The notes beneath the pieces are model-generated. The model worked only from the letters and a program-made list of their open reading frames with translations, was not told where the DNA came from and ran no database searches. A DNA stretch of 64,000 nt from Clostridia bacterium (GTDB lineage Bacteria > Bacillota > Clostridia > Oscillospirales > Acutalibacteraceae), in NCBI GenBank assembly GCA_017465085.1, contig JAFTWW010000037.1, positions 17,765 through 81,764 of the forward strand, written 5' to 3'. How positions within the stretch are numbered: the first letter of the stretch is position 1; every line of letters starts with the position of its first letter. Below, piece by piece: positions 3,705 to 62,452 of this stretch. The position numbers were made by a program, and so were the translations under genes.

Positions 3705-4466
3705 ATGAAAAAGATTATAGCATTACTTTTAGCAGTTTGCATGGTATTCTGCTTTGCAGCCTGCGGTAAGAACACAGATGATGCCGATAACAAGCTTGTT
3801 ATGGCAACCAATGCCGAGTTCCCTCCCTATGAGTATCATGAGGGTGATGAGATTGTTGGTATCGATGCTGAAATCGCAGCTTTAATCGCTGAGAAGCTTG
3901 ATATGGAGCTTGAAATCGCCGATGTTGATTTCGATTCCATTATCCCCGGCGTTCAGGAAGGCAAGTACGATATGGGTATGGCTGGTATGACTGTTACCGA
4001 TGAGCGTCTCGAAAAAGTTGCATTCTCTGATACTTATGCCAAGGGTGTTCAGGTTGTTATCGTTAAGGAAGATGGCAACATCGCTTCCCTTGATGATGTT
4101 GAAGGCAAGAAGATTGGCGTTCAGCAGGGCACTACCGGTGATATCTATGCTTCCGATTCCGTTGAAAACGGCGGCTATGGCGAAGAGAATGTTACCAAGT
4201 ATGCCAATGGCGCTTTAGCGGTTGAGGCTCTTAAGTCCGACAAGGTTGATTGCGTTATCATTGATAACGAGCCTGCTAAGGCTTATGTAAAGGCTAACGA
4301 GGGTCTTAAGATTCTTGATACTGAGTATGCTAATGAGGACTATGCTATTTGCTTTGCTAAGGAAAACACCGAGCTTCAGACCAAGGTTAACGATGCTCTT
4401 AAGGAGCTCATTGCTGACGGTTCTGTTCAGAAGGTTGTTGATAAGTACATCAAGGCTGAGGAATAA
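3705..4466 (+). CDS. Amino-acid ABC transporter substrate-binding lipoprotein
   Basis: Signal peptide with Cys (LLAVCMVFCFAAC). Family-3 SBP motifs (ATNAEFPPYEY, MAGMTVTDER). ATG 3705 is preferred over 3693 because GAGGA sits 6 nt upstream. Confidence 0.9.
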   Translation: MKKIIALLLAVCMVFCFAACGKNTDDADNKLVMATNAEFPPYEYHEGDEIVGIDAEIAALIAEKLDMELEIADVDFDSIIPGVQEGKYDMGMAGMTVTDERLEKVAFSDTYAKGVQVVIVKEDGNIASLDDVEGKKIGVQQGTTGDIYASDSVENGGYGEENVTKYANGALAVEALKSDKVDCVIIDNEPAKAYVKANEGLKILDTEYANEDYAICFAKENTELQTKVNDALKELIADGSVQKVVDKYIKAEE

Positions 4467-9540: not shown

Positions 9541-10902
9541 ATGAAAGATTCCTACTGCGAAATTACAGAATATATAGAAAAGCTCGCAGAGCTTTCCTGC
9601 AATAACAATAATATAAAGCCTGAAATGTATAGCGAGCATTCGGTTAAAAGAGGTCTTCGAGATTTGGATGGTAAGGGCGTTGTTACGGGGCTTACCGAAA
9701 TATCCTCCATAACATCAAGAAGGGTTTTACCCGATGGCACCGAGGAATCCTGCGATGGAGTTCTGTGCTACAGAGGCTATAATATAAAGGATTTGGTAAA
9801 CGGCTTTATGGCCGATAACCGTTTTGGCTTTGAAGAAACGGTTTATCTTCTGCTTTTCTCCGAGCTGCCCACCAAGGAGCAGTTGGCCGAGTTTAAGTTA
9901 GCCCTTGCGGATTACAGAAGTCTGCCTACCTCCTTTGTGCGTGATATGATACTGAAGGCGCCCGGTAAGGATATGATGAACATTCTTTCCCGTAGCGTTC
10001 TGGTGCTTTATGCCTATGATGATAATGCCGATGATATTTCTATTCCCAATGTTTTAAGGCAGAGCCTGTTCCTTATTTCCGTTCTCCCTTTACTTGCGGT
10101 TTACAGCTATCAATCCTTCCAGCATTACCACAACGGCAAGAGCCTCTTTATTCACATGCCTCACCCCGAGCTTTCTACTGCCGAGAATATTCTTCGCCTT
10201 TTAAGAGAGGATAGCAAATATTCTGCCCTTGAAGCCAAGATGCTTGACCTTGCCTTAGTGCTCCACGCGGAGCACGGCGGCGGTAACAACTCCACCTTTA
10301 CCACCCACGTTGTAACCTCCTCAGGTACCGATACCTATTCTTCGGTTGCGGCGGCTCTCGGCTCCCTTAAGGGACCGCGCCACGGCGGCGCAAACGTTAA
10401 GGTTGTTCGTATGTTTGATGATATGATTGCAAATATCGATATCAAAAATGAGGACGCCATCAGAGATTATTTGAGAAAGCTTCTTGATAAGGAGGCCTTT
10501 GATAAAGCAGGTCTCATCTACGGTATGGGCCACGCGGTTTATTCCAAATCTGACCCACGAGCCGATGTGCTTATGAAATGCGCCCGTGACCTTTCTATTG
10601 AAAACGGCTACGAGGAAGAATATAAGCTTTATGAAACCGTTGCCCGTATAGCGCCCGAAATCATTGCCGAAAAGCGTAAGATATATAAGGGTGTAAGCGC
10701 CAATGTGGATTTCTACTCAGGTCTTGTTTACAGAATGCTCCGCCTCCCCTACGAGCTATATACTCCCATCTTCGCAATTTCCCGAATAGCAGGTTGGAGC
10801 GCCCACAGAATCGAAGAAATTCAGTGCGCAGGTAAAATCATCCGTCCCGCCTATGTCAATGTTAAGGAGCCTCACGAATATATCCCTATGGATAAAAGAT
10901 AA
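9541..10902 (+). CDS. Citrate synthase
   Basis: 453 aa. HAEHGGGNNSTF, GPRHGGAN and GMGHAVY catalytic motifs. Confidence 0.9.
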   Translation: MKDSYCEITEYIEKLAELSCNNNNIKPEMYSEHSVKRGLRDLDGKGVVTGLTEISSITSRRVLPDGTEESCDGVLCYRGYNIKDLVNGFMADNRFGFEETVYLLLFSELPTKEQLAEFKLALADYRSLPTSFVRDMILKAPGKDMMNILSRSVLVLYAYDDNADDISIPNVLRQSLFLISVLPLLAVYSYQSFQHYHNGKSLFIHMPHPELSTAENILRLLREDSKYSALEAKMLDLALVLHAEHGGGNNSTFTTHVVTSSGTDTYSSVAAALGSLKGPRHGGANVKVVRMFDDMIANIDIKNEDAIRDYLRKLLDKEAFDKAGLIYGMGHAVYSKSDPRADVLMKCARDLSIENGYEEEYKLYETVARIAPEIIAEKRKIYKGVSANVDFYSGLVYRMLRLPYELYTPIFAISRIAGWSAHRIEEIQCAGKIIRPAYVNVKEPHEYIPMDKR

Positions 10903-10907
10903 TATTT

Positions 10908-10946
10908 CCGACCGACTGCAAATATACTTGCGGTCGGTCATTTTTT
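10908..10946 (+). terminator. Rho-independent terminator after citrate synthase
   Basis: GACCGACTGCAA..TTGCGGTCGGTC stem followed by ATTTTTT. Confidence 0.7.
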
Positions 10947-11049
10947 ATTAAAAAACAGAAAATTTTTGAATTTTTGCCTTTTTCGATGCAAAAAACAGGG
11001 CGAAAACAAAGAAAAAACCAAAAAACAAAGAAAAATTCAAAAAAATTCC

Positions 11050-11078
11050 TTGACTTTTTACGCATTTTGTGGTATTGT
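11050..11078 (+). promoter_or_regulatory. Candidate promoter of the BMC operon
   Basis: TTGACT (11050-11055), 17-nt spacer, TGgTATTGT extended -10 (11070-11078). Embedded in A-tracts. Confidence 0.45.
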
Positions 11079-11141
11079 TATGATGTAATAAGGTGTAAAC
11101 CAAACAAAAAACCAAAAAATATATTCAAAGGAGAACCAAAA

Positions 11142-11939
11142 ATGGCAAACGAATTTGAAATTAAGAAACAAATTTGTGAAATCGGAAAGCGTATTTATGA
11201 CAAGGGCATGGTTGCTTCTAATGACGGAAATATCTCCGTTAAGTTAAGCGACAATGAGTTCCTCTGCACCCCCACAGGTGTTAGCAAGGGCTTTATGACT
11301 CCCGAGTACATTTGTAAGGTTGACCGTGACGGTAAGGTTATTCAGGCTAACCCCGGTTTCAGACCCTCTTCTGAAATAAAGATGCATATGCGTGTATATA
11401 AGGAGCGTCCCGATGTTAATGCGGTTGTTCACGCTCATCCCTTATATGCTACCGGCTTTGCAATAGCAGGTATTCCCCTAACTCAGCCCATTATGCCTGA
11501 GGCAGTAATTGCTCTTGGCTGTGTGCCCATCGCTGAGTATGGTACCCCCTCCACCGAGGAAATCCCCGATGCAGTATCTAAGTATTTACAGTCCTTTGAT
11601 GCTGTTCTTCTTGAAAACCATGGCGCTCTTTCCTTCTCTGATAGCCTTCTTAACGCTTATCACAAGATGGAGTCTGTAGAGTTCTATGCCCGTCTTCTTT
11701 ACATATCCAACCAGCTTGGCGGTCCCAAGGAGCTTTCCGAATCTCAGGTTCAGCGCCTTTATGAAATTCGCCGTCAGTTCGGTATGAAGGGCAAGCACCC
11801 TGCTGATCTTTGCCCCAATGCTAAGAGCGGCAAGCCCAGCTGTCACGGTTGCGGCGGTAACTGCAACTGCAATCACGGCGCTGATAACGATTTAGTTTCC
11901 GAAATCACCCGCCGCGTTCTTGAGCAGATGGGTAAATAA
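11142..11939 (+). CDS. Class II aldolase/adducin-family protein (FucA/RhaD/AraD-like) with Cys/His-rich linker and C-terminal encapsulation-peptide-like helix
   Basis: AAAGGAGA RBS precedes ATG 11142. The track's 56-codon upstream extension is rejected. SNDGNIS and HAHP (metal His) motifs. Tail is ...CPNAKSGKPSCHGCGGNCNCNHGADNDLVSEITRRVLEQMGK. Confidence 0.85.
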   Translation: MANEFEIKKQICEIGKRIYDKGMVASNDGNISVKLSDNEFLCTPTGVSKGFMTPEYICKVDRDGKVIQANPGFRPSSEIKMHMRVYKERPDVNAVVHAHPLYATGFAIAGIPLTQPIMPEAVIALGCVPIAEYGTPSTEEIPDAVSKYLQSFDAVLLENHGALSFSDSLLNAYHKMESVEFYARLLYISNQLGGPKELSESQVQRLYEIRRQFGMKGKHPADLCPNAKSGKPSCHGCGGNCNCNHGADNDLVSEITRRVLEQMGK

Positions 11940-11952
11940 TCAGGTGAGCAGC

Positions 11953-12435
11953 ATGGATGAACATGTTTTGCGAAACTTGATTGAATCCGTAGTCCGTGAG
12001 GTTAAATCGGAAGCGCAGAATATAACCCTTAATCAAGCCAAGCTTCTTTGCGCAGAAATTCAGAAAAAGGCCAAGGAAATGGGTGTTAATGCGGTTGTTG
12101 CTATATCTAACAGCACCGCCAATCCCATTTTGGTTGAATGTATGGATGATGCATATATTGCAAGCTACGATGTTGCAGTACAAAAGGCGTTTACTGTAGT
12201 TTCCCTTAAGATGTCCACCTCAACACTTAAGCCCTTGGCTCAGCCCGGTGGCTCCCTTTACGGAATACAGTTTACCAACAACGGTAAAATTGTTATTTTC
12301 GGCGGCGGCGAGCCTCTTTACAGCTCTTCTGGTAAAATCATCGGGGGACTTGGAGTAAGCGGCGGCAGTGAAGAGCAGGATACCTTCTTAGCCGAATACG
12401 GAAGAAGAATTTTTGAAAACAGTATCAGATTATAA
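11953..12435 (+). CDS. GlcG/DUF336 (PduO-C-terminal-like, haem-binding family) protein with N-terminal EP-like helix
   Basis: GVNAVVAISNS...GGLGVSGGSEEQD motifs of DUF336. About 20-aa N-terminal extension MDEHVLRNLIESVVREVK. Confidence 0.75.
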   Translation: MDEHVLRNLIESVVREVKSEAQNITLNQAKLLCAEIQKKAKEMGVNAVVAISNSTANPILVECMDDAYIASYDVAVQKAFTVVSLKMSTSTLKPLAQPGGSLYGIQFTNNGKIVIFGGGEPLYSSSGKIIGGLGVSGGSEEQDTFLAEYGRRIFENSIRL

Positions 12436-12454
12436 TCAATTTTCTAAAAAAGGC

Positions 12455-12478
12455 GGGGAGATTCCCTCCCCTCTTTTG
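12455..12478 (+). terminator. Internal hairpin/partial terminator before the BMC-H gene
   Basis: GGGGAG-attcc-CTCCCC followed by TCTTTT. Confidence 0.4.
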
Positions 12479-12515
12479 AATAATTTTTTGTCATTTTATT
12501 AAGGAGGATATAAAA

Positions 12516-12794
12516 ATGTCACTTGAAGCTTTAGGTATGGTAGAAACCAGAGGTCTTGTTGCTGCTATCGAGGCTGCCGATGCTATGGTAAAGGCTGCTA
12601 ACGTTCAGTTAATAGGCACCGAGAAAATCGGCTCCGGCCTTGTATCTGTTATGGTACGCGGCGATGTAGGCGCAGTTAAGTCTGCTGTTGAAGCCGGCTC
12701 CAACTCTGCTTCCCGTTTAGGCGAGCTTATTGCTACCCACGTAATTCCCCGCCCCCACGAAGATGTAGAGAAGATTCTCCCCTCTTTAAAGTAA
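12516..12794 (+). CDS. BMC-H shell protein (PduA/EutM type, single PF00936 domain)
   Basis: 92 aa. [26 protein letters not shown]...[15 protein letters not shown]...HVIPRPH. Strong AAGGAGG RBS. Confidence 0.95.
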
Positions 12795-12874
12795 TTATCT
12801 GAAATCAACAAGGGGGCCTATGTGCCCCCTTAATGTTGGTTTACCCCATTTTTTGGAAGGAATAGGTTAGAACA

Positions 12875-13156
12875 ATGATTGTCGGAAAAGTAATCGGAAG
12901 CATCGTTGCTACAAGAAAAAATGAAAATCTTATTGGCAGCAAATTTATGGTTGTTGAGCCTATTGCCGAGCTTGGAAACCCCAAGGAAAGAATCGTTGCT
13001 GTTGATAACGTGGGCGCCGGTATCGGTGAAACCGTATTAGTAGCAACAGGCTCTGCCGCGCGAATCGGCTGCGGTATGGCAACATCCCCCATTGATGCCG
13101 CCATTGTTGGTATTGTTGATAGCGGCACGGGACTTACCGGAGTTAGTCAGGTATGA
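12875..13156 (+). CDS. BMC-P pentameric vertex protein (EutN/PduN/CcmL family)
   Basis: 93 aa. MIVGKVIGSIVATRK...VAVDNVGAGIGETVLVATGSAAR. Confidence 0.9.
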   Translation: MIVGKVIGSIVATRKNENLIGSKFMVVEPIAELGNPKERIVAVDNVGAGIGETVLVATGSAARIGCGMATSPIDAAIVGIVDSGTGLTGVSQV

Positions 13157-14493
13157 ATTTAGAACAGATAAAAAATCTTTTACGCGAAAACGGTATCGTT
13201 GGCGCAGGCGGAGCAGGTTTCCCTACATATGCTAAGCTTGATAAAAAAGCCGATACCTTAATACTTAACTGCGCAGAATGCGAGCCCTTGCTTCGTCTGC
13301 ACAGGCAGGTACTTAAAATGTTCACCTATGAAATTTTAAGCACCCTTGATTTGATTTCGAAAATATTAGAGGTTGAAACCGTTTACATCGGCATCAAGGG
13401 CTCTTACAAGAGAACTCTTGAGGCAGTAAATGCGGAGCTTACCTCTTTTCCAAATATGAAGGTTTGCACTCTGCCTGAGGTTTATCCCGCAGGCGATGAA
13501 GTAGTGCTTACATATGAAGCTACGGGCAGAGTTGTTCCCGCTGGCTCTATTCCGCTTTCTGTGGGTGTTACTGTCCTTAATGTTGAAACGGTATATAATA
13601 TTTACCGCGCATTAGAGGGTAGCCCTGTTACACATAAGTATGTAACCGTTACGGGCGAGGTTAAAAACCCCATAACAGTTTACGCCCCCATCGGTGTTCC
13701 TCTGCAAAATCTTATTGATATGGCAGGCGGAATTACCATAGAGGACCCCGCTTATCTTATCGGCGGACCTATGATGGGAAAGCTTGGCTCCCCCACAGAG
13801 CCCGTGACCAAGACCACCAATGCAGTTTTGGTGTTACCTAAAAATCTTCCGCTTGTTCAGAAGAAGCTTAGCAAGACCTCTATTGACCTTAAGAGAGCTA
13901 TGTCGGCCTGTTGCCAGTGCAGTTACTGCACTTCCCTTTGCCCCCGTCAGCTTTTAGGTCATCCTATCGACCCCAGCGCCTTTATGTATGCGGCGTCCAA
14001 TCACGTAACCTGCGATGTTATGCCCTATGTTAACTCTATGTTTTGTTCGGGCTGCGGTCTTTGTGAGATGTATTCCTGCGGTCAGGGGCTTTCCCCCAGA
14101 GCACTGCTCACCGCCGCTAAGAATGGTCTTCGTAAAAACGGCTTGAAGCCACCGCAAGATCCCAATATGCACAGCGTTCATCCCGATAGGCAATTCCGTA
14201 TGATTCCTTTATCCCGTCTTCGTTCAAGGCTCGGGCTTAACCCCTATAATAAGTCCGCCCCTGTAACCGAGGATGAGGTTAGGGCTAAAAAGCTCAAAAT
14301 TGCCCTTTCTCAGCACATAGGCGCCCCCGCGGTACCCGTTGTTAATAAGGGTGATAAGGTTTTAGCAGGTCAGTTAATAGCCGAGGCTGCTCCCGATGCG
14401 CTTAGCGTTGCAATACACGCTTCTATGAGCGGAACGGTTGCAGATATAAACAAAAAATACATAACCATTTTAGTATCAGGAGGAACTGAATAA
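13153..14493 (+). CDS. pduS: PduS-like Fe-S flavoprotein (RnfC/NuoF-like, SLBB, two 4Fe-4S motifs)
   Basis: 446 aa. GAGGAGFPTYAKL N-terminus. CCQCSYCTSLCP and CSGCGLCEMYSC cluster motifs. Confidence 0.85.
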   Translation: MNLEQIKNLLRENGIVGAGGAGFPTYAKLDKKADTLILNCAECEPLLRLHRQVLKMFTYEILSTLDLISKILEVETVYIGIKGSYKRTLEAVNAELTSFPNMKVCTLPEVYPAGDEVVLTYEATGRVVPAGSIPLSVGVTVLNVETVYNIYRALEGSPVTHKYVTVTGEVKNPITVYAPIGVPLQNLIDMAGGITIEDPAYLIGGPMMGKLGSPTEPVTKTTNAVLVLPKNLPLVQKKLSKTSIDLKRAMSACCQCSYCTSLCPRQLLGHPIDPSAFMYAASNHVTCDVMPYVNSMFCSGCGLCEMYSCGQGLSPRALLTAAKNGLRKNGLKPPQDPNMHSVHPDRQFRMIPLSRLRSRLGLNPYNKSAPVTEDEVRAKKLKIALSQHIGAPAVPVVNKGDKVLAGQLIAEAAPDALSVAIHASMSGTVADINKKYITILVSGGTE

Positions 14494-15041
14494 TGAATAA
14501 AGCATTAGGTATGGTTGAGTTTAAGACAGTATCCTCCGGTATGCGCGCGGCAGACCGAATGGTGAAGACTGCCGATGTTGATTTAATTCAAGCGGATACC
14601 GTGTGTCCCGGTAAGTATTTAGCGCTTATAAGCGGTGAATTAAGCGCCGTTAAGGCTGCCGTTGAGGCGGCTTGTGTTGCCGACCCTGAGCAGCTTATAG
14701 ATAGCTTTACTCTCGGTAATCCCCACGATTCCATATTCAGCGCCCTTTACGGCTCGGCCGAAATCGGCAATCCCAACGCCTTAGGCGTTTTGGAAACCTT
14801 CTCTGCCGCCGCCGCCATTGTTGCCGCTGATACTGCCGCAAAAACCTCTTTGGTTGACCTTATTGAGCTTCGACTTGCAAGAGGTATGTGCGGTAAATCC
14901 TATCTGCTCTTAACGGGCGAAATTGCCGCTGTTGAAGCCGCTATTGAACGGGCTAAGGCAGGCGCAGGCGAATACGGTATGTTCCTTGACAGCGCCGTTA
15001 TCCCCCGCCCCGATGAGAAATTCTGGCAGAAAATTCTATAA
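14493..15041 (+). CDS. pduT: PduT-like tandem-domain BMC-T shell protein
   Basis: 182 aa. Two BMC domains (ALGMVEF..., ALGVLETFS...). Conserved pore Cys in TVCPGKYLALISGE, as in PduT TICPGKF. Confidence 0.85.
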   Translation: MNKALGMVEFKTVSSGMRAADRMVKTADVDLIQADTVCPGKYLALISGELSAVKAAVEAACVADPEQLIDSFTLGNPHDSIFSALYGSAEIGNPNALGVLETFSAAAAIVAADTAAKTSLVDLIELRLARGMCGKSYLLLTGEIAAVEAAIERAKAGAGEYGMFLDSAVIPRPDEKFWQKIL

Positions 15042-15062
15042 TCAGTATTAAGGTGTTAAATT

Positions 15063-16250
15063 ATGAAAATTCTTGTTATAAATGCAGGTAGTTCTTCGCT
15101 TAAATACCAGCTTTACAATATGGATAGCGGCGAAGTACTTGCTAAGGGTAACTGCGAGCGTATAGGCTCGGGCGGTTTTATCACCCATAAAAGACCTGGG
15201 TTTGAAAACTACGCCTGCGAGGTAGATCTCCCCTCTCACGATGAGGCTCTCTCCCTCGTTTTAGGCCTTCTTGTAAGTGAGGAATACGGAGTTTTAAGCA
15301 GTATTGATGAAATCGATGCCGTAGGTCACAGAATTGCTCACGGCGGTGAAAAATTCAAAAGCTCCACCCTTATTGATGATGAGGCAATAGCTTACCTTGA
15401 AACCATCGTTCCCATCAATCCCTTACACGGCCCTCCTGCTATTAAGGGAATTAAGGCTTGCAGAAGGCTTATGAAAGATACTCCGCAGGTTGGCGTTTTC
15501 GATACCTCTTTTTATTCTCAGATTGAGGATTACCGCATTATCTACGCCATTCCCTATGAGTATTACACCGAAAATAAAATCCGCCGTTACGGTTTCCACG
15601 GCACCTCCCACAGATATGTTTCTGCCAAGGCTGCCGAAATGCTTGGAAAACCTATTGAAGAACTTAAAATTATTACCTGTCATTTGGGTAACGGCTCTTC
15701 TATAACTGCGGTTAACGGCGGCATCGCCGTTGATACATCCATGGGCTTCACTCCTCAGGAGGGTATCCCTATGGGTACAAGAAGCGGTACTATTGACCCC
15801 ACCGTTGTTCCCTATATTATGAAGCAAAGAGGTCTTTCTGCCGAAGAGGTAGAGGATGTTCTCAATAAGAAATCCGGACTTTTGGGTGTTAGCGGTCTTT
15901 CTAATGACTACAGGAATGTTTTAACCGCCGCTAAAGAGGGTAACTACCGCGCAGACCTTGCTATTAAGATGCTTTCAAACGGCATTAAGAAATATATCGG
16001 CAGCTACACTGCCGAAATGAACGGTCTTGACGCTATCGTTTTCACCGCAGGTATCGGCGAAAACGATTCCACCATAAGAAGCCTTGTTTGCAAGGATATG
16101 GATTATCTTGGAATTAGGATAGATGAGGATAAGAATAGTTCCGCCTCAGGCGCTGCTGATATTTCGGCAGATGATTCCAAGGTTAAAACCTTGGTTATAC
16201 CCACTGATGAGGAGTATATGATTGCCCTCGATACCTTAAAATTTTGTTAG
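15063..16250 (+). CDS. ackA: Acetate kinase
   Basis: 395 aa. MKILVINAGSSSLKYQLY, FHGTSH and TCHLGNGSS motifs. Confidence 0.95.
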   Translation: MKILVINAGSSSLKYQLYNMDSGEVLAKGNCERIGSGGFITHKRPGFENYACEVDLPSHDEALSLVLGLLVSEEYGVLSSIDEIDAVGHRIAHGGEKFKSSTLIDDEAIAYLETIVPINPLHGPPAIKGIKACRRLMKDTPQVGVFDTSFYSQIEDYRIIYAIPYEYYTENKIRRYGFHGTSHRYVSAKAAEMLGKPIEELKIITCHLGNGSSITAVNGGIAVDTSMGFTPQEGIPMGTRSGTIDPTVVPYIMKQRGLSAEEVEDVLNKKSGLLGVSGLSNDYRNVLTAAKEGNYRADLAIKMLSNGIKKYIGSYTAEMNGLDAIVFTAGIGENDSTIRSLVCKDMDYLGIRIDEDKNSSASGAADISADDSKVKTLVIPTDEEYMIALDTLKFC

Positions 16251-16261
16251 GAGGTAAGTTT

Positions 16262-16900
16262 ATGGCATACGATGATGCTTTAGTTGCTGAAATTGTCAGC
16301 AGAATTATGGCGCAATGTTCTGATGATGAGAACACCGTTCCCGTTGGCGTTTCTAACCGCCACATTCATTTGAGTAATGAGCACGTTGAAATTCTTTTCG
16401 GTAAAGGCTACGAGCTTACTCCCTTTAAGGATTTATCTCAACCGGGTCAATATGCTTGTAAGGAGTTACTTACCATCGTTGGCCCCTCACTTCGCCCTAT
16501 AGAAAACGTCAGGGTTTTAGGTCCCGTGCGTTCTGCTTCTCAGGTAGAGATATCCCGCACCGATTCCTTTGCGCTTAAGGTTAAGCCCCCCGTTCGCGAA
16601 TCGGGTGATATCGCAGGCTCTGCCCCCATCACCATCATTGGACCTAAGGGTGTTGTAACACTTAAAGAAGGTTGTATAATTGCTAACCGCCATATTCATA
16701 TGAGCGAGGATGAAGGCAAGGCTTTTGGACTTAAGGATGGCGACTATGTTACCGTTGAGGCAAACGGTGAACGCCGCACCACATTCTATGATGTTCAGGT
16801 GAGAGTTAATAAGGCTTTCAGACTTGAAATGCATATCGATACCGATGATGCAAATGCGGCAGGCATCGGCAACGGCGCTAAGGTGAAGATAATTAAATAA
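16262..16900 (+). CDS. pduL: Phosphate propanoyl/acyl-transferase PduL with N-terminal EP-like helix
   Basis: Duplicated SNRHIHLS / ANRHIHMS PduL motifs. N-terminal DALVAEIVSRIMAQ. TAGGAGG RBS. The track start at 16244 overlaps ackA and is rejected. Confidence 0.9.
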   Translation: MAYDDALVAEIVSRIMAQCSDDENTVPVGVSNRHIHLSNEHVEILFGKGYELTPFKDLSQPGQYACKELLTIVGPSLRPIENVRVLGPVRSASQVEISRTDSFALKVKPPVRESGDIAGSAPITIIGPKGVVTLKEGCIIANRHIHMSEDEGKAFGLKDGDYVTVEANGERRTTFYDVQVRVNKAFRLEMHIDTDDANAAGIGNGAKVKIIK

Positions 16901-16902
16901 TT

Positions 16903-16935
16903 AAAAAAACCGATGGAATTCCATCGGTTTTTTCT
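16903..16935 (+). terminator. Rho-independent terminator ending the BMC operon
   Basis: AACCGATGG-aatt-CCATCGGTT followed by TTTTC. Confidence 0.8.
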
Positions 16936-17036
16936 TTACATTTCTAAAAATATAGGTTATAATCAAAGTGAACTATATTTATATTTTTCTATATTTTTAT
17001 CCTGATTTATTCATTTTTGTTTCAAGGAGTAGGATT

Positions 17037-17861
17037 ATGAGCGAGTATGCTTCTATGCTTAATATCAGCGGTTTAGTATTAAATGAAAACGCTACTGTTA
17101 AAGCCGACTGCTATAATGCTATCATTATAAAAAACGGCGCTCTTACTGCCTCCATCGGTGCAGATGTTTTAACGGTGCCACAAAATCATTTGATTGTTTT
17201 ATCTTCCGATACCGTCAATTACATAAAGGCTGATGATAACCTGGTTGCTTTATCACTCGCCTTTGATGGAAGCGGTGAAATCTTAGAAAAGATTAAATGC
17301 AAAGCGTTCGAATTAGATGAGGATAAAGTAAATCTTATTTTTGAAATCGCCGCCAAGAGTGATAACCTAAAGCTTTATAAATACGATTCTGCTTTAAGGC
17401 TTATTTTCTCCTACTGTTATGAAACAGATAGTGCTGATTTAATTTCCGATAAGAAGGATGCCATTTTATTCGGCAAGGCTGTTTCGATTTTAGAGGATAA
17501 TGTGGGCGGAGATATTTCGGTTAACGAATTATCTGAGGTGCTAAAAATCAGCCTTTCGCACATCAAAAGGCTTTTTGCAAAATACTCCTATCTTGGCGCC
17601 CACGAATATTTGCTTGCTCTTAAAATATTAAGGGCTAAGGAACTGCTGAAACAAAATGTTTCAGTAACCGAAACTGCAAGGCTTGTTGGCTTTGCAACCC
17701 AAGCCTATTTTTCTGCCGCTTTTAAGAAGATAACGGGTGTTTCTCCTAAATCTTATTTCAGTAACGATACTGAAGTACCTTTAGTTAAGCCTAAAACTCA
17801 ACCTAGACCGAAAAGAGCTCCTGAAACAAAAAAAGAAAATTTGCCAAGCTACTTATTATAA
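17037..17861 (+). CDS. AraC-family transcriptional regulator
   Basis: C-terminal double HTH (ISVNELSEVLKISLSHIKRLF ... AYFSAAFKKITGVSPKSY). AAGGAG RBS precedes ATG 17037. Confidence 0.85.
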   Translation: MSEYASMLNISGLVLNENATVKADCYNAIIIKNGALTASIGADVLTVPQNHLIVLSSDTVNYIKADDNLVALSLAFDGSGEILEKIKCKAFELDEDKVNLIFEIAAKSDNLKLYKYDSALRLIFSYCYETDSADLISDKKDAILFGKAVSILEDNVGGDISVNELSEVLKISLSHIKRLFAKYSYLGAHEYLLALKILRAKELLKQNVSVTETARLVGFATQAYFSAAFKKITGVSPKSYFSNDTEVPLVKPKTQPRPKRAPETKKENLPSYLL

Positions 17862-45994: not shown

Positions 45995-46531
45995 TTATTC
46001 TTCGATTTTTGTTTCTCTTACAATTTCGGTATCGGTGAAAACATCGGTTTCATCGGTGCTCTTTGTTGAGAACTCAGAAACAACGGCGCCTTTTTTACCT
46101 GCTTGGAACCAGTGAAGAGTTTCAGGCATAATGGTATATTGCTCGCCTGCTTTAAGCACAACCTCGTGGAAAACGGTAACCTTGCTAGAGGGAAGCTTAC
46201 CCTTTATATTATCGGTATTCTTTTCACCCTCAACATAGAGATAAACCTCGCCGTAGCGGCAACGGAAGGTTTCCTCCTTGCCAGCCATAGTTTCGCTTGG
46301 GATATGCTTATGCTCGGGGCAGGTCTGCTCGGGTAATAACACCATTTCCTTTGCGCAAACACGCTCGGTGTTGATATAAACCAAGAGCTGAAGACCTATT
46401 TCATTAACACGGCCTAAGCCAAAATCGGCAACCTCAATGCTGTTTTTCTCATCTTCGGTTAAAACAATATTTGCCTTTTTATAATACTTTAACGCCTTTT
46501 TTACCTGAGCATCATATTCATTTCTGGTCAT
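45995..46531 (-). CDS. D-lyxose/D-mannose ketol-isomerase family cupin
   Basis: 178 aa. EMVLLPEQTCPEHKH cupin metal motif. Recalled as similar to YdaE-type lyxose isomerases. Confidence 0.7.
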   Translation of the reverse strand: MTRNEYDAQVKKALKYYKKANIVLTEDEKNSIEVADFGLGRVNEIGLQLLVYINTERVCAKEMVLLPEQTCPEHKHIPSETMAGKEETFRCRYGEVYLYVEGEKNTDNIKGKLPSSKVTVFHEVVLKAGEQYTIMPETLHWFQAGKKGAVVSEFSTKSTDETDVFTDTEIVRETKIEE

Positions 46532-47742
46532 ATTCTTTTCCTCCCATAGATTTCACCCATTTTTTCTATTTCTTCTTTTTTCTTCATACCGTCAACCGAG
46601 TTTTCTGCAAAAAGGTTGCAGGCTGCGGCGGCCGAAGCGAACTCAAGAAGCTGTTTATCGGTGAAATTGTTATATATTCCGTAAAGAGTGGCGGCGCAGA
46701 AGGCATCCCCTGCTCCAACGCTTCCCTTTATTTTATCTGAAGGAATATTAAGTGAGGGCACACAGGTGAAATTACCCGTTGCCACATCATAGCAAAAGCC
46801 TGCGGGCTTACAATGAATAACAATCTTTTCCTTAACACCCTTGGCGGCTATAAACTCCATCATTTTACGGATATTGTTTTTATCAAGCTCACCCTTTTCG
46901 TTGTAAGCCGAAATATCGGCAACCATACCTGCCTCAATTTCATTGATAATTGCATAATCGCAATATTTAAGGGCGGGAACAATTTTATCCTTAAAATCAG
47001 GGCGGCTTTCACTTACAACATCAATAGAGGTTTTAATTCCCCTTGCCTGAACATCGTGAAGGAAATGCGCCATAACGGTGCCGTACTCACTATCGGGCTC
47101 ATCAAAGGAATCGAGTAATAATATGTAGCCAATGTGAAGCATCTGAGTATTGATGGCATCAATATCCACATCCAAAGGTGAAAACTGCGCGTTTGCGCCG
47201 CGGGCGTGGAAGAAGGTCCGCTCACCCGAAGGCTCATTCATAACATCGGTAAAGCTTGTAGGTTTATCTGCCGATATTTTAACCTGCTCACAATCGATGC
47301 CATAACGGCTCATTTCGGAAAGCACAAATCTGCCGTATTCATCCTTACCTACTTTGCCGAGGGCGGAAATTGGCAGAGTTTTATCGATTTTAGCAAGATT
47401 GATTGCGGTATTAGGCACACATCCTCCTACCGACATCTTTATCTCTCTTATAGTAGAAAGAAGGCCAATGCTTGGATAATAATCGATATTTTTAATGATA
47501 TCGGCGAGAATATTTCCCGCAATGGTAATGCCCTTTTTATCCCCTGTCATAAGATAATCCACAGTTACTCCGAAAACGGATGCTAACAGCGGAAACTGGG
47601 TGATTTCGGGAAAGCCTAAGCCGTTTTCCCAACGGCTTACGGTTTTATTGCTGATATTGAGGCGCTCTGCTAAATCGGTTTGGGTAATGCCGCATTTTTT
47701 ACGCAAATCGGCTATTACACCGCCTATGCTTTTAGGGTCCAT
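46528..47742 (-). CDS. Fusion protein: N-terminal XRE-family HTH plus PfkB/ribokinase-family sugar kinase
   Basis: 404 aa. HTH QTDLAERLNISNKTVSRWENG. Kinase body with GAGDAF motif. ATGA overlap with the isomerase gene. Confidence 0.85.
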   Translation of the reverse strand: MDPKSIGGVIADLRKKCGITQTDLAERLNISNKTVSRWENGLGFPEITQFPLLASVFGVTVDYLMTGDKKGITIAGNILADIIKNIDYYPSIGLLSTIREIKMSVGGCVPNTAINLAKIDKTLPISALGKVGKDEYGRFVLSEMSRYGIDCEQVKISADKPTSFTDVMNEPSGERTFFHARGANAQFSPLDVDIDAINTQMLHIGYILLLDSFDEPDSEYGTVMAHFLHDVQARGIKTSIDVVSESRPDFKDKIVPALKYCDYAIINEIEAGMVADISAYNEKGELDKNNIRKMMEFIAAKGVKEKIVIHCKPAGFCYDVATGNFTCVPSLNIPSDKIKGSVGAGDAFCAATLYGIYNNFTDKQLLEFASAAAACNLFAENSVDGMKKKEEIEKMGEIYGRKRI

Positions 47743-47870
47743 ATCTTCACCGCCATAATTATTTTATATTTTAATTATATCATAAATTTGGACTTAGTAA
47801 ACCCAAAGATAGTAGATTTTTTGCAGATTTGCCCCCCTTTTACACCCAAAATATCTACGACTCGTAGACT

Positions 47871-48902
47871 TTAGAAGCATTTGCAATTTCTTTTCTTTTT
47901 ACAATTCTCAATATTTCCGCAATGGTAGCAAAGCTCGTTTTCACAACCGCCCGTATTGAAGATATCGATTATATTCTGCGCGGTTGTTTCGGCGATATTA
48001 TTGAGCGCCTCCTCGGTTAAAAAGCCCTGATGCGAGGTAACAATTACATTGGGCATTGAAATAAGACGGGCGAGTATATCATCGTTAATAATGTGGCCTG
48101 AGAAATCCTCAAAGAATACATCCGATTCCTCTTCATAAACATCAAGACAGGCCGCGCCGATTTTTCGCGATTTGATACCTTCCAGTAAAACCTCGGCATC
48201 AATAAGCGCTCCGCGTGAGGTGTTTACTATAACAACACCCTTTTTCATTTTATCCACGGTTTCGGAGTTAATCAGATGATGGGTTTCCTTTGTTAAGGGG
48301 CAATGGAGTGAAATTATATCACTTTTCTCAAGCAGATCCTCTAAGGAAACATAATTTATATCACTGCTCTTATCGGGATATTTATCATAGGCGATAACAT
48401 TCATTCCAAAGCCCCTGCATATATCTATGAAAACCCTGCCTATCTTACCAGTTCCTATAACACCTACTGTTTTTCCGTGAAGATCGAAGCCTGTAAGCCC
48501 GTGAAGACTAAAATTAAAATCTCTTGTTCGGATATACGCCTTGTGGATGCGGCGGATAGAGGTAAGCAACATAGCCATAGCGTGTTCCGCAACGGCATAG
48601 GGCGAATATGCAGGAACGTGAACCACGTGTATCTTACCGTAGGCGCTCTTAACATCAACATTGTTATAACCTGCGCAGCGAAGAGCTATAACCTTTACTC
48701 CAAGCTTATGAAGGCTTTCAATCACCTCGGCAGAGGCATTATCGTTAACAAATATGCATACGCCATCACAGCCGCTTGCCAGAGAAACGGTATCAGGGGT
48801 TAACTTTGTTTCGTAAAACTTAAAGGTTATCCCCTTTTCCTCTCCGTATTTCTGAAAAGAAATCTTATCGTATGGTTTGGTATCAAAAAAAGCAAATTTC
48901 AT
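47871..48902 (-). CDS. D-isomer-specific 2-hydroxyacid dehydrogenase (D-lactate dehydrogenase-like) with Cys-rich C-terminal tail
   Basis: 343 aa. GVIGTGKIG NAD motif and the R/E/H catalytic region. Tail is GGCENELCYHCGNIENCKKKRNCKCF. Confidence 0.88.
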   Translation of the reverse strand: MKFAFFDTKPYDKISFQKYGEEKGITFKFYETKLTPDTVSLASGCDGVCIFVNDNASAEVIESLHKLGVKVIALRCAGYNNVDVKSAYGKIHVVHVPAYSPYAVAEHAMAMLLTSIRRIHKAYIRTRDFNFSLHGLTGFDLHGKTVGVIGTGKIGRVFIDICRGFGMNVIAYDKYPDKSSDINYVSLEDLLEKSDIISLHCPLTKETHHLINSETVDKMKKGVVIVNTSRGALIDAEVLLEGIKSRKIGAACLDVYEEESDVFFEDFSGHIINDDILARLISMPNVIVTSHQGFLTEEALNNIAETTAQNIIDIFNTGGCENELCYHCGNIENCKKKRNCKCF

Positions 48903-61240: not shown

Positions 61241-61269
61241 TTGACAAATAATCGCATAAATGGTATATT
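61241..61269 (+). promoter_or_regulatory. Candidate promoter of asd-dapA-dapB
   Basis: TTGACA (61241-61246), 17-nt spacer, TGgTATATT (61261-61269). Confidence 0.5.
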
Positions 61270-61369
61270 TATTATGTATGATTATGGTTTAAGCTTAATA
61301 TTTATATATTATATTGCAAAAACGGTCATATGGCAACTATTTTTTCTTTTATTTTTGGAGATGATCACG

Positions 61370-62452
61370 ATGAAAAAGTACGATGTAGGCATTATAGGCG
61401 CTACGGGAATGGTAGGTCAGAGATTTTCTCTGCTCCTTGCCGACCACCCTTGGTTTAACGTTACCGCTCTTGCGGCAAGCAGCAGAAGCGCCGGTAAAAC
61501 CTTCGAAGAAGCAGTTTCTTCCCGTTGGGCTATGACCGACCCTATCCCCCAGAATCTTAAAGATATGGTTATCTACGATGCAGTAGAGGATATGGAAACC
61601 GTAGCGGGCAAGGTTGATTTCGTTTTCTGCGCAGTTGATATGAAGAAGGATGAAATCAAGGCTTTAGAGGAGGCCTATGCTAAGCTTGAGTGCCCCGTTG
61701 TTTCCAATAACAGCGCGCACCGCTTTACCCCCGATGTTCCTATGGTTATTCCCGAGATTAACGATAATCACCTTGATGTTATCGCTTCTCAGAGAGAGCG
61801 TCTTGGTACCAAGCGCGGCTTTATTGCCGTTAAATCCAACTGCTCGTTACAGAGCTATGTTCCCGCAATCTACCCCCTTGATAAGAAATTCGGCGTAGAT
61901 AAGTGCCTTGTTTGTACATATCAGGCAATTTCGGGCGCAGGTAAAACCTTTGAGCGTTGGCCCGAGATGGTGGATAATGTTATCCCCTTCATCGGCGGCG
62001 AGGAGGAAAAGAGTGAGCGTGAGCCCCTTAAAATCTGGGGTGAGGTTAAGGATGGCGAAATTGCCCTTGCCGATAGTCCTAAGTTTACCGCTCAGTGCCT
62101 TAGAGTTCCTGTATCTGACGGTCATATGGCGGCAGTTTTCGTATCCTTTAAGAATAAGCCCTCCAAGGAAGAAATACTTAAGGTTTGGGAGGAGTTCTCG
62201 GGTGTTCCTCAGGAGCTTTCTCTCCCCCATGCACCCCGCCAGTTCCTTAACTACTTTACCGAAGATAATATGCCCCAGACCAAGCTTAACCGCAACCTTG
62301 AGGGCGGTATGGCAGTATCTGTTGGCAGACTCCGTGAGGATAGCCAATATGACTATAAGTTCGTTTGCCTCTCCCACAATACCTTAAGGGGCGCCGCAGG
62401 CGGAGCTGTTTTACTTGCTGAGCTTCTCTGCGCTAAGGGTTATATGGACTAA
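61370..62452 (+). CDS. asd: Aspartate-semialdehyde dehydrogenase
   Basis: MKKYDVGIIGATGMVGQRF and the active-site region SNCSLQ. GGAG lies 9 nt upstream of ATG 61370. Confidence 0.95.
   Translation: MKKYDVGIIGATGMVGQRFSLLLADHPWFNVTALAASSRSAGKTFEEAVSSRWAMTDPIPQNLKDMVIYDAVEDMETVAGKVDFVFCAVDMKKDEIKALEEAYAKLECPVVSNNSAHRFTPDVPMVIPEINDNHLDVIASQRERLGTKRGFIAVKSNCSLQSYVPAIYPLDKKFGVDKCLVCTYQAISGAGKTFERWPEMVDNVIPFIGGEEEKSEREPLKIWGEVKDGEIALADSPKFTAQCLRVPVSDGHMAAVFVSFKNKPSKEEILKVWEEFSGVPQELSLPHAPRQFLNYFTEDNMPQTKLNRNLEGGMAVSVGRLREDSQYDYKFVCLSHNTLRGAAGGAVLLAELLCAKGYMD

Follow-up and report, generated by a model that had tools for sequence, protein, structure and literature searches.

Operon organization and gene content

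The window analyzed here is a 64,000-nt stretch from a Clostridia bacterium (Acutalibacteraceae; GCA_017465085.1), covering positions 17,765 to 81,764 of the forward strand of contig JAFTWW010000037.1. Eight genes run in one direction (+) at 11142–16900, with a promoter-like site on the 5' side and a strong terminator on the 3' side. The initial annotation had called them a co-directional BMC operon, and a Pfam profile scan gives all eight assignments as first described. Between the genes, the junctions are clean: ribosome-binding sites are in place, and the spacers measure 11–21 nt.

The first gene (11142–11939, +; PF00596, E = 7e-51) encodes a class II aldolase of the L-fuculose/L-rhamnulose-1-phosphate type. 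Among solved proteins, the enzyme comes closest to FucA structures, and it retains the PSSE, HAH, and NHG motifs. When aligned to these structures, the catalytic domain stops at about residue 215 and is followed by a 50-residue extension ending in DLVSEITRRVLEQMGK; the protein comprises a catalytic domain (residues 1–215), a Cys/His-rich linker (224–243), and a C-terminal encapsulation peptide (250–265). The second gene (11953–12435, +; PF03928, E = 6e-32) encodes a DUF336/GlcG/HbpS-like protein whose domain begins at residue 24. Its N-terminus is an amphipathic helix, MDEHVLRNLIESVVREVK, which is the top amphipathic window of the protein and is kept in relatives. The last gene (16262–16900, +; PF06130, E = 2e-79, domain from residue 27) encodes a PduL-type phosphotransacylase with the N-terminal encapsulation peptide MAYDDALVAEIVSRIMAQ. 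An alignment to RpPduL (5CUO) recovers the GVSNRHIHLS, RHIHM, and EMHID motifs. Encapsulation peptides had been claimed at these three termini from the start, and the domain limits, amphipathicity, and conservation all agree: the terminal segments rank among each protein's most amphipathic 14-residue windows, and all three peptides are conserved across homologues, including those of the further reduced locus L079.

The shell genes encode a BMC-H (12516–12794, +; PF00936), the sole hexamer shell protein remaining in the locus, a BMC-P pentamer vertex protein (12875–13156, +; PF03319), and a PduT-type tandem-domain BMC-T (14493–15041, +; two PF00936 domains). PduT has the pore cysteine motif CPGKY, which fits the C-P/S/A-G-K/R/S-Y/F motif described previously (PMC6325248). 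Between BMC-P and PduT lies a PduS-type flavin/iron-sulfur oxidoreductase (13153–14493, +; PF01512, PF10531 (SLBB), PF13534 (Fer4_17), and PF13375 (RnfC_N)), with cysteines at 253/254/256/259/263 and 298/301/304/309. The acetate/propionate kinase AckA (15063–16250, +; PF00871, E = 1e-142) has no encapsulation peptide; complete relatives place it between DeoR and the acylating aldehyde dehydrogenase (AldDh).

Upstream, a terminator-like hairpin follows the citrate synthase gene (10910–10939, +; 12-bp stem with seven GC pairs, then a T-run) and delimits the operon on its 5' side. Two promoter-like sites, TTGACT-17-TATTGT and TTTACG-16-TATGAT (11050–11084, +), are consensus matches only; in both, TG precedes the second hexamer, and an A-rich tract lies immediately upstream. 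Short GC-rich hairpins separate DUF336 from BMC-H (12455–12471, +) and BMC-H from BMC-P (12810–12831, +; 8-bp stem with six GC pairs, without a clear T-run). The latter could be an attenuator or RNA stabilizer that sets shell stoichiometry. A strong, bidirectional terminator-like hairpin (16904–16933, +; 13–14-bp stem, then a T-run) follows pduL and forms the 3' boundary. Downstream, an AraC-family regulator (17037–17861, +; PF12833/PF00165) has its own promoter-like site at 16935–16963. Orthologues occupy the same post-pduL position in the related loci L002, L018, L079, L085, and L086, and this AraC-family protein likely regulates the operon.

Absence of the core enzymes

Pfam scans of the 55 open reading frames of at least 150 aa in the 64 kb gave no member of PF00171, no PFL-like/Gly_radical protein, no radical-SAM activase, no B12 diol-dehydratase family member, and no Zn- or Fe-type alcohol dehydrogenase. 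The sole gene in the window resembling an aldehyde dehydrogenase is an aspartate-semialdehyde dehydrogenase adjoining dapA (61241–62452). Searching the window by tblastn with the glycyl-radical enzyme (GRE), activase, PduV, ZnADH, DeoR, and AldDh of a complete relative returned a best E of only 0.27; thus, it contains no pseudogene remnants of these genes. Both analyses uphold the original statement that AldDh, alcohol dehydrogenase, GRE or B12 diol dehydratase, and activase are missing from the 64 kb. AldDh was likewise absent from the 20.8 kb searched of L002's 68 kb contig.

Descent from GRM5 loci

GRM5 is the glycyl-radical-enzyme microcompartment for L-fucose and L-rhamnose of Clostridium phytofermentans and Roseburia inulinivorans (PMC3557285, PMC6325248, PMC8217296). 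The window was compared with 80 related loci from gut Acutalibacteraceae/Oscillospirales MAGs, whose aldolases are 81–98% identical to its own. In 71 of the 80, GRE-module genes adjoin the aldolase (81–93% identical), and ZnADH, DeoR, and AldDh are also present wherever the contig extends far enough. The usual order is GRE-activase-BMC-PduV-aldolase-DUF336-ZnADH-BMC-H x4–5-BMC-P-PduS-PduT-DeoR-(AckA)-AldDh-PduL. The window shares with GRM5 the C-terminally tagged aldolase, DUF336, BMC-H, BMC-P, PduS-PduT, PduL, and optional AckA in the same relative order, with 72–97% protein identity to complete loci of the same bacterial family; the aldolase is 92–93% identical to its counterparts there and BMC-H 96–97% identical to their main BMC-H. 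In contrast to GRM5, the window lacks the defining GRE and activase, PduV, the Zn-ADH lactaldehyde reductase, AldDh, and DeoR; it has a single BMC-H where GRM5 has at least four, and the two divergent BMC-H genes are also absent.

The aldolase and PduL of the window type both nest within clades from complete loci. The nesting of the aldolase in the GRM5 clade identifies the window type as a secondary reduction. The likeness first suggested, to the shell, aldolase, PduL, PduS, and PduT half of GRM5 or PVM-like loci without the oxidizing core, is confirmed, with complete GRM5 loci as close relatives. L085 and L086 are complete loci with the same AraC gene behind them. The window architecture and flanks recur in ENA contig L001 and NCBI MAG L002 (in which BMC-H is 100% identical), and over the part covered, including the citS-aldolase-DUF336 junction, in the 8.3 kb Logan contig L082. 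No fewer than three lineages have the reduced type with shared flanks, and its place on the chromosome is fixed in three. No second aldolase copy above 81% identity was present in the one MAG examined. Partial loci of diverse kinds occur in the related set (L012, L018, L033, L052, L053, L077, and L079), and the aldolase is the gene most persistently retained among reduced loci.

Selection on the retained genes

Nei–Gojobori dN/dS between the window copy and L002 ranges from 0.015 to 0.083 for all eight genes at dS of 0.33–1.16; the ratios are approximate, since dS near 1 approaches saturation. Values are 0.021, 0.062, and 0.083 for the cargo proteins aldolase, DUF336, and PduL; 0.015, 0.033, and 0.033 for the shell proteins BMC-H, BMC-P, and PduT; and 0.059 and 0.056 for PduS and AckA. 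The flanking rpe, citS, GH38, and fhs genes are comparable (0.024–0.051). Seven pairs of complete GRM5 loci show dN/dS no lower than the operon, except for PduL, whose value is the operon's highest and slightly exceeds that of complete loci (0.017–0.071). This could reflect some relaxed constraint or an altered role. The operon is evolutionarily maintained and not decaying, and purifying selection on the retained set indicates that it still works.

Relation to other locus types

The gene set fits none of the catalogue descriptions compared. The PVM-like loci found in Firmicutes (PMC4207490; PMC8217296, Supplementary Data 2) resemble it in having a class II aldolase as apparent signature enzyme, no GRE, and a PduL and BMC-P of GRM5 type; Axen et al. 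suspected that they are GRM5 fragments (PMC4207490). However, these loci are described with a GRM5-related AldDh, and L012 and L077, the PVM-like loci among the relatives, also have Zn-ADH and DeoR, whereas the window has none of the three. The PVM loci of Planctomycetes and Verrucomicrobia start with the same aldolase reaction, and the lactaldehyde, lactoyl-CoA, lactoyl-phosphate, lactate route suggested for them (PduL, AckA) is the one proposed below. Unlike the window, PVM loci combine AldDh with a lactate/malate-type dehydrogenase and a BMC-P triplet and have no PduS/T; they are also unrelated in gene order and taxonomy. ACI and HO loci (PMC8217296) divide core enzymes between main and satellite loci. 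They offer a precedent of an aldolase-bearing main locus with AldDh consistently encoded elsewhere, as would be the case here, although they belong to other phyla, their enzymes are unrelated, and their shell sets differ (BMC-P triplets).

Proposed function and alternative explanations

The explanation we favor, to which we give an even chance, is that this secondarily reduced GRM5 locus of an uncultured Acutalibacteraceae lineage has a minimal shell and an incomplete core complemented in trans by an unlinked acylating AldDh. It is a cut-down form of the well-known GRM5 type from uncultured gut Clostridia. The losses correspond to four gene-precise deletions: the GRE-activase-BMC-PduV module; ZnADH (the Zn-dependent lactaldehyde reductase) with four accessory BMC-H; DeoR; and the acylating AldDh. 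What remains is a minimal shell (a single BMC-H, a single BMC-P, and PduT), the cargo proteins aldolase, DUF336, and PduL, plus PduS and AckA, and the shell would hold aldolase, DUF336, PduL, and PduS. Within it, the aldolase would cleave L-fuculose-1-P or L-rhamnulose-1-P to DHAP and L-lactaldehyde. An acylating AldDh encoded at another genome site, either the relocated GRM5 enzyme or one from another BMC locus, would most likely convert lactaldehyde to lactoyl-CoA; PduL would then form lactoyl-phosphate and recycle CoA, and AckA would yield lactate and ATP. Electrons from NADH would leave the lumen via PduS/PduT instead of the lost alcohol dehydrogenase.

With its core enzymes lost, the operon most likely depends on one supplied from another part of the genome. 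In the established model, metabolosome PduL recycles CoA for an encapsulated AldDh (PMC4207490, PMC8217296). An encapsulated PduL is sensible only with an encapsulated CoA-consuming enzyme, whose gene would lie elsewhere. ACI loci as a rule have their AldDh encoded outside the main locus (PMC8217296, Supplementary Data 2), and L033, an orphan aldolase with encapsulation peptide amid unrelated genes, indicates that compartment genes do disperse among these relatives. The conserved encapsulation peptides, together with the presence of a pore cysteine in PduT and of the cysteine motifs in PduS, suggest that encapsulation is still in use. PduS/PduT have been proposed to serve GRE activation (PMC6325248); if that were their only role, their retention without GRE would be unexplained, which counts against the trans-complemented locus. 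So do the slightly raised PduL ratio and the lack of an AldDh in the window and in the L002 stretch searched.

An unlikely alternative is that the genes are functional and the metabolosome is gone. The aldolase would serve ordinary fucose/rhamnose catabolism, in which an unlinked FucO-type enzyme reduces lactaldehyde and 1,2-propanediol is excreted, PduL and AckA would be the cell's general ATP-yielding pair from acyl-CoA to acid, and shell, PduS/T, and DUF336 would be kept for a secondary reason, such as solubility of tagged enzymes. Aldolase, AckA, and PduL are each plausible outside a compartment, and the persistence of the aldolase, down to the orphan in L033, fits as well. PduL-type enzymes are reported to serve as housekeeping phosphotransacetylases in certain Firmicutes, Moorella among them. 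However, with dN/dS of 0.015–0.062, BMC-H, BMC-P, PduT, PduS, and DUF336 are under selection as strong as that in complete loci, and all three encapsulation peptides are conserved. Moreover, the relative L052 has a separate, untagged, housekeeping-looking PduL paralogue, so the tagged PduL is not obviously required for such a role.

It is improbable that shell, aldolase, DUF336, PduL, and PduS/T form an autonomous compartment that activates the aldehyde or makes acyl-phosphate without a PF00171 enzyme. The AraC-linked reduced loci (window type, L018, and L079) have as common core exactly the shell and the three encapsulation-peptide proteins, PduS/T are selected without GRE, and the Cys/His-rich aldolase linker is conserved. 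Yet this linker is just as present in complete loci, and none of the retained proteins comes from a family with a known ability to oxidize aldehydes or convert them to acyl-CoA or acyl-phosphate; the studied DUF336 members act as sensors, binding haem, cobalamin, or formaldehyde (PMC8153426, PMC4923194). With 72–97% identity between every retained protein and its equivalent in L004, a complete GRM5 locus, there is little scope for new activities. The three options first offered are not equally likely: an incomplete core complemented in trans is the most probable, and for alternative aldehyde chemistry there is no positive evidence, DUF336 proteins acting as sensors of ligands or aldehydes rather than as oxidoreductases (PMC8153426).

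We are equally doubtful that the operon is an accessory module, an aldolase front-end with extra shell proteins, of another complete BMC locus (EUT2, GRM1, or PDU) in the genome. Such pairings are known: for PVM-like loci, over half of the genomes also hold EUT2 and/or GRM1A, and GRM5 loci are accompanied by EUT2B in 5–15% of cases (PMC8217296, Supplementary Data 2). However, both the shell proteins and the encapsulation peptides of the operon belong to the GRM5 type, and its own BMC-H, BMC-P, BMC-T, and PduL make the locus fit the catalogue's main-locus definition. The accessory module overlaps with the trans-complemented locus, the sole difference being the source of AldDh.

A decaying remnant of a recently broken GRM5, or an assembly artefact or chimeric contig, is very improbable: frequent erosion is evident from the many partial loci, but all eight reading frames are intact, with clean junctions and no gene fragments, dN/dS stays at 0.015–0.083 over dS of about 0.3–1.2 between two lineages in the reduced state, and this reading is largely refuted by the ratios against L002 and against complete GRM5 pairs together with the absence of fragments. 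Independent assemblies from ENA and NCBI share this structure, and the Logan contig shows its upstream part.

Gene content and borders of the operon

The eight genes named in the initial annotation were all recovered by an ORF listing and Pfam scans. The operon opens with a class II aldolase (11142-11939) and a DUF336/HbpS-like protein (11953-12435). The remaining genes encode the hexamer shell protein BMC-H (12516-12794), the pentamer shell protein BMC-P (12875-13156), PduS (13153-14493; Nuo51 FMN, SLBB, 4Fe-4S dicluster, and RnfC_N domains), PduT (14493-15041; two BMC domains), the acetate kinase AckA (15063-16250), and the phosphotransacylase PduL (16262-16900). Together, the H, P, and PduT-type T proteins are a minimal set competent to form a shell. 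PduT displays the pore motif CPGKY, and PduS contains two cysteine clusters.

The 5' neighbour of the operon is the citrate synthase gene citS (9541-10902), to which a terminator-like hairpin at 10910-10939 belongs. The promoter and strong terminator proposed to bracket the operon correspond to promoter-like hexamers at 11050-11084, 5' of the aldolase, and a hairpin of 13-14 bp with a T-run at 16904-16933, 3' of pduL. An A-rich tract, AAAACAGGGCGAAAACAAAGAAAAAACCAAAAAACAAAGAAAAATTCAAAAAAATTCC (10975-11050), lies immediately 5' of the promoter-like site and could be a UP-element-like or regulatory region. The intergenic regions on either side of the single BMC-H gene contain GC-rich hairpins (12455-12471 and 12810-12831), which may adjust how much hexamer transcript is made relative to the pentamer and cargo transcripts. 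An AraC-family regulator (17037-17861) is encoded 3' of pduL, and a convergent GH38 alpha-mannosidase gene lies beyond it.

Encapsulation peptides and active sites

The aldolase is 92-93% identical to its counterparts in complete loci of GRM5, the fucose/rhamnose glycyl-radical microcompartment. Its residues 6-215 align to the L-fuculose-phosphate aldolase structures 4C24 and 1FUA, and the PSSE, HAH, and NHG motifs are kept. A C-terminal extension of 50 residues past the catalytic domain bears the terminal helix DLVSEITRRVLEQMGK; the window thus has the GRM5 feature of a fuculose-phosphate aldolase (PF00596) whose C-terminus carries an encapsulation peptide (EP). PduL aligns from residue 25 to RpPduL (5CUO) with its GVSNRHIHLS, RHIHM, and EMHID motifs intact, and its first 24 residues include ALVAEIVSRIMAQ. 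In the DUF336 protein, an N-terminal helix precedes the Pfam domain. These terminal segments rank among the most amphipathic windows of each protein and are conserved across relatives, bearing out the EP-type termini that had been read from the aldolase, the GlcG-like (DUF336) protein, and PduL. AckA is without an EP. Studied DUF336 members bind haem, cobalamin, or formaldehyde (PMC4923194; PMC8153426), and, speculatively, the protein may act in aldehyde or cofactor sensing.

Between the catalytic domain and the EP, the aldolase has a Cys/His-rich linker, CPNAKSGKPSCHGCGGNCNC (residues 224-243; window 11811-11870), containing C224, C234, H235, C237, C241, and C243. All 17 inspected aldolases have the C-x9-CHxC core, those of complete GRM5 loci as well as an orphan copy (L033). 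The linker resembles a binding site for a metal or an Fe-S cluster; no description of it was found in the compartment literature searched.

Relatives and descent from GRM5

The exact aldolase was found on metagenome contigs with identical gene order. A GTDB species-genome scan with the aldolase returned at least 573 relatives, of which the best 80 (aldolase identity 81-98%) were analysed. These 80 come from uncultured Acutalibacteraceae, Oscillospiraceae, and 'Clostridia bacterium' metagenome-assembled genomes (MAGs), recovered from the guts of ruminants, other animals, and humans. The parent family is very common in the gut metagenomes of ruminants and humans; more than 570 species-level genomes have a window-related aldolase.

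When window proteins were mapped onto the 80 loci, most proved to carry genes beyond the window set, and 71 of the 80 have at least part of the glycyl radical enzyme (GRE) module. In the complete relative L004, Pfam identified a PFL-like GRE with a glycine-radical domain, a radical-SAM activase (AE), a divergent BMC protein, and PduV upstream; a Zn-dependent alcohol dehydrogenase (ADH) and a further divergent BMC-H, both encoded between DUF336 and the shell genes; and DeoR and a 480-aa aldehyde dehydrogenase (AldDh) between PduT and PduL. The canonical order in relatives is GRE-AE-BMC-PduV-aldolase-DUF336-ZnADH-BMC-H x4-5-BMC-P-PduS-PduT-DeoR-(AckA)-AldDh-PduL, with ZnADH between DUF336 and the BMC-H genes and AldDh between DeoR/AckA and PduL. 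The literature describes this organisation for GRM5 (PMC6325248; PMC8217296, Supplementary Data 2).

Neighbour-joining trees of aldolase and PduL group these components with those of GRM5 by descent. The window copy (ENA contig L001) and the NCBI MAG locus L002 nest within the complete loci L003, L004, L005, L012, and L040, in keeping with the proposed resemblance to the GRM5/PVM-like half with its oxidising core removed. By this tree placement, the locus is assigned to the GRM5/PVM-like lineage. L002 (aldolase 98% identical), whose MAG occurs only once among aldolase matches of at least 81% identity, shares all eight genes and the flanks rpe, citS, AraC, GH38, and fhs with the window. The 8.3 kb Logan contig L082 (aldolase 95% identical) matches the window in its upstream flanks and, as far as it reaches, at the citS-aldolase-DUF336 junction. 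A 94%-identical aldolase also occurs inside a complete GRM5 locus (L083) in a different genomic context. A chromosomal site shared with complete loci was considered and rejected: citrate synthase lies 5' of the GRM5 locus in L009 only, and contexts are otherwise varied.

The reduced state of the window type is secondary: four blocks were lost relative to the probable ancestor, a complete locus with AckA and AraC. AraC also follows loci that keep ZnADH and/or DeoR, AckA, and AldDh (L085 and L086), so the ancestral state was probably such a complete locus.

Other partial loci and the AraC regulator

Reduction takes several forms among relatives. L012 and L077 are PVM-like and have no GRE module. 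L052 has lost GRE and activase and kept the divergent BMC and PduV. L018 reads aldolase-DUF336-H-H-H-P-AckA-AldDh-PduL-AraC. L079 (JAZMZQ010000195.1, 3083-6686) is smaller yet, with aldolase-DUF336-BMC-H-BMC-P-PduL-AraC; it is without PduS/T, AckA, and AldDh and keeps the three EPs. In AraC-linked reduced loci, the irreducible core is thus the shell plus the three tagged proteins. The orphan aldolase L033 (JAFQQM010000002.1, 10001-10801) is 86% identical to the window's and has an intact Cys-rich linker and EP. The 10 kb upstream and 4.8 kb downstream of it contain no BMC gene; next to it are genes for a PP-loop ATPase, an Fe-only hydrogenase, and HrcA.

The AraC gene 3' of pduL is orthologous in L001, L002, L018, and L079, which have the C-terminus NLPSYLL in common. 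All orthologues carry an unusual, conserved tail, N/E-L/M-P-x-YLL. Between L001 and L002, AraC is only 55-56% identical (dN 0.39), compared with 87-98% for neighbouring genes. A search of JGI metagenomes with the AraC alignment for further reduced loci returned only four full-length relatives. AraC is not a marker of reduction, since in two of the four (L085 and L086) it follows fuller loci with ZnADH and/or DeoR-AckA-AldDh; a third, L087, displays pduL-araC alone.

Two further genes were seen in these loci. A 499-aa ORF between pduL and araC in L018 (7663-9162 of JAZREW010000177.1) has no Pfam match and no counterpart in the window or any other fetched locus. Just upstream of the GRM5-derived locus L052, a 197-aa PduL paralogue without an EP (3769-4362 of CAJKLB010000011.1) is 50% identical to window PduL and is possibly the housekeeping phosphotransacetylase of the family.

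Missing core enzymes

The absence of AldDh, ADH, diol dehydratase, and activase from the 64 kb, reported in the initial annotation, was upheld by Pfam scans of all 55 window ORFs of at least 150 aa and by tblastn. No GRE (PF02901 and PF01228) or activase (PF04055) occurs in the 64 kb by Pfam or by tblastn with the L004 GRE and AE (best E = 0.27). Both methods also found no lactaldehyde reductase (PF00107/PF08240) in the window and no PF00171 acylating AldDh in the locus or the 64 kb. Among the 55 ORFs, Pfam detected no iron- or zinc-type ADH and no B12 diol dehydratase. From the metabolosome core of signature enzyme, AldDh, phosphotransacylase (PTAC), and ADH, only the aldolase and PduL were found in the window.

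Remnants of the lost genes were ruled out. When GRE, activase, PduV, Zn-ADH, DeoR, and AldDh of the complete relative were run against the window by tblastn (E up to 10), the best E was 0.27 and no pseudogene fragments were seen, and on inspection the deletion junctions are clean 11-21 nt spacers with ribosome-binding sites.

Selection on the reduced operon

Constraint was estimated by the Nei-Gojobori method between L001 and L002, two lineages sharing the reduced state. The dN/dS values are 0.021 for the aldolase, 0.062 for DUF336, 0.015 for BMC-H, 0.033 for BMC-P, 0.059 for PduS, 0.033 for PduT, 0.056 for AckA, and 0.083 for PduL, ratios that are approximate because operon dS is 0.33-1.16 and values near 1 are close to saturation. 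Flanking housekeeping genes give 0.024-0.051, and seven complete GRM5 locus pairs of similar divergence span the same range as the reduced operon. The sole hint of relaxation is PduL, at 0.083 versus 0.017-0.071 in complete loci. The reduced operon is robustly under strong constraint, and comparison with the flanking genes and the seven intact pairs rules out decay.

PduS and PduT show strong purifying selection (dN/dS 0.059 and 0.033) with GRE and activase absent from the locus and the 64 kb, which points to a GRE-independent role and argues that in GRM-type compartments the pair does more than serve GRE activation. Their use for activase reduction is a hypothesis raised and left open in PMC6325248.

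Place among known locus types

Because BMC-H and BMC-P are both present, the locus is formally a main BMC locus as defined by Sutter et al. (2021; PMC8217296), and so not formally a satellite. Unlike GRM5, it has none of the defining GRE, activase, lactaldehyde reductase, and AldDh. It encodes one BMC-H, together with PduS, PduT, PduL, and one BMC-P, whereas the GRM5 entry, in the catalogue text covered, has four BMC-H. With PVM-like loci it shares the class II aldolase signature, the lack of a GRE, and a GRM5-related PTAC and BMC-P; however, those loci include a GRM5-related AldDh (PMC8217296), which the window locus lacks. BUF denotes compartments with no associated AldDh genome-wide; for the window locus, the absence covers the locus and the 64 kb.

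The catalogue descriptions compared were those of ACI, ARO, BUF2/3, EUT3, FRAG1-8, GRM6, HO, MIC2, and PVM/PVM-like, and parts of those of GRM5, MIC1, and MIC4. An exact match to a catalogued type had been named as evidence against novelty, and none appears among these text descriptions. The aldolase-bearing types GRM5, PVM, PVM-like, ACI, HO, and MIC4 are each described with an AldDh in the catalogue texts covered (PMC8217296). As the window locus has none, it is a variant of the known GRM5/PVM-like kind. It is a natural minimisation of a well-known organelle down to three shell proteins, three EP-tagged proteins, PduS, and AckA, and it is as strongly constrained as complete loci are.

Proposed pathway and alternatives

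In metabolosomes, PduL serves to regenerate the CoA that an encapsulated acylating AldDh needs (PMC4207490). Selection on a tagged PduL implies such a partner, and since none is encoded within 64 kb, we infer that a partner acylating AldDh elsewhere in the genome is the likeliest answer. In ACI loci, it is consistently a satellite that encodes the AldDh (PMC8217296), and the dispersed compartment genes of this family (L033) provide a second precedent for an unlinked partner. Fuculose-1-P or rhamnulose-1-P would be cleaved to DHAP and lactaldehyde, which would be converted to lactoyl-CoA, then lactoyl-phosphate, and finally lactate and ATP. The propanediol branch is gone without GRE and lactaldehyde reductase, and the remaining enzymes match the route proposed for PVM compartments. 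For NADH re-oxidation, PduS/PduT are the only retained candidates. An AldDh elsewhere is an unspectacular answer that still leaves the locus a clean natural minimisation, and it would mean that neighbourhood-scored catalogues mis-type split compartments in gut Clostridia.

Use of the aldolase and PduL/AckA outside any compartment is unlikely but the strongest of the competing accounts; the shell genes and EPs are strongly constrained, and L052 has a separate EP-less PduL paralogue. It is rather doubtful, and has no positive support, that the operon encodes a self-sufficient minimal compartment (one BMC-H, one BMC-P, PduT, aldolase, DUF336, PduL, and PduS) that processes the aldehyde without a PF00171 AldDh, a new oxidising or acyl-activating step then involving PduS/PduT and DUF336, or the aldolase Cys/His linker. 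No earlier aldolase-based metabolosome would, if this is true, have had an AldDh-independent core, and an AldDh found nowhere in the genome would make an exception to the metabolosome paradigm. Equally doubtful is an accessory module of another BMC type, itself a variant of the unlinked-AldDh explanation. Decay or an assembly artefact is essentially refuted by dN/dS, the lack of gene fragments, and three independent assemblies. The gene set offers a ready-made minimal shell-plus-cargo template for engineering.

Other genes of the window

The rest of the window encodes transporters, purine and pyrimidine biosynthesis operons, glycoside hydrolases, sugar kinases, a 2-hydroxyacid dehydrogenase, queuosine genes, and asd-dapA. 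In a cluster at 45995-48902, genes for a D-lyxose-isomerase-like cupin and a D-2-hydroxyacid dehydrogenase accompany one for a PfkB kinase with a fused HTH domain; GH2 and GH38 glycosidases are encoded elsewhere in the window. The cluster looks like a sugar salvage system.
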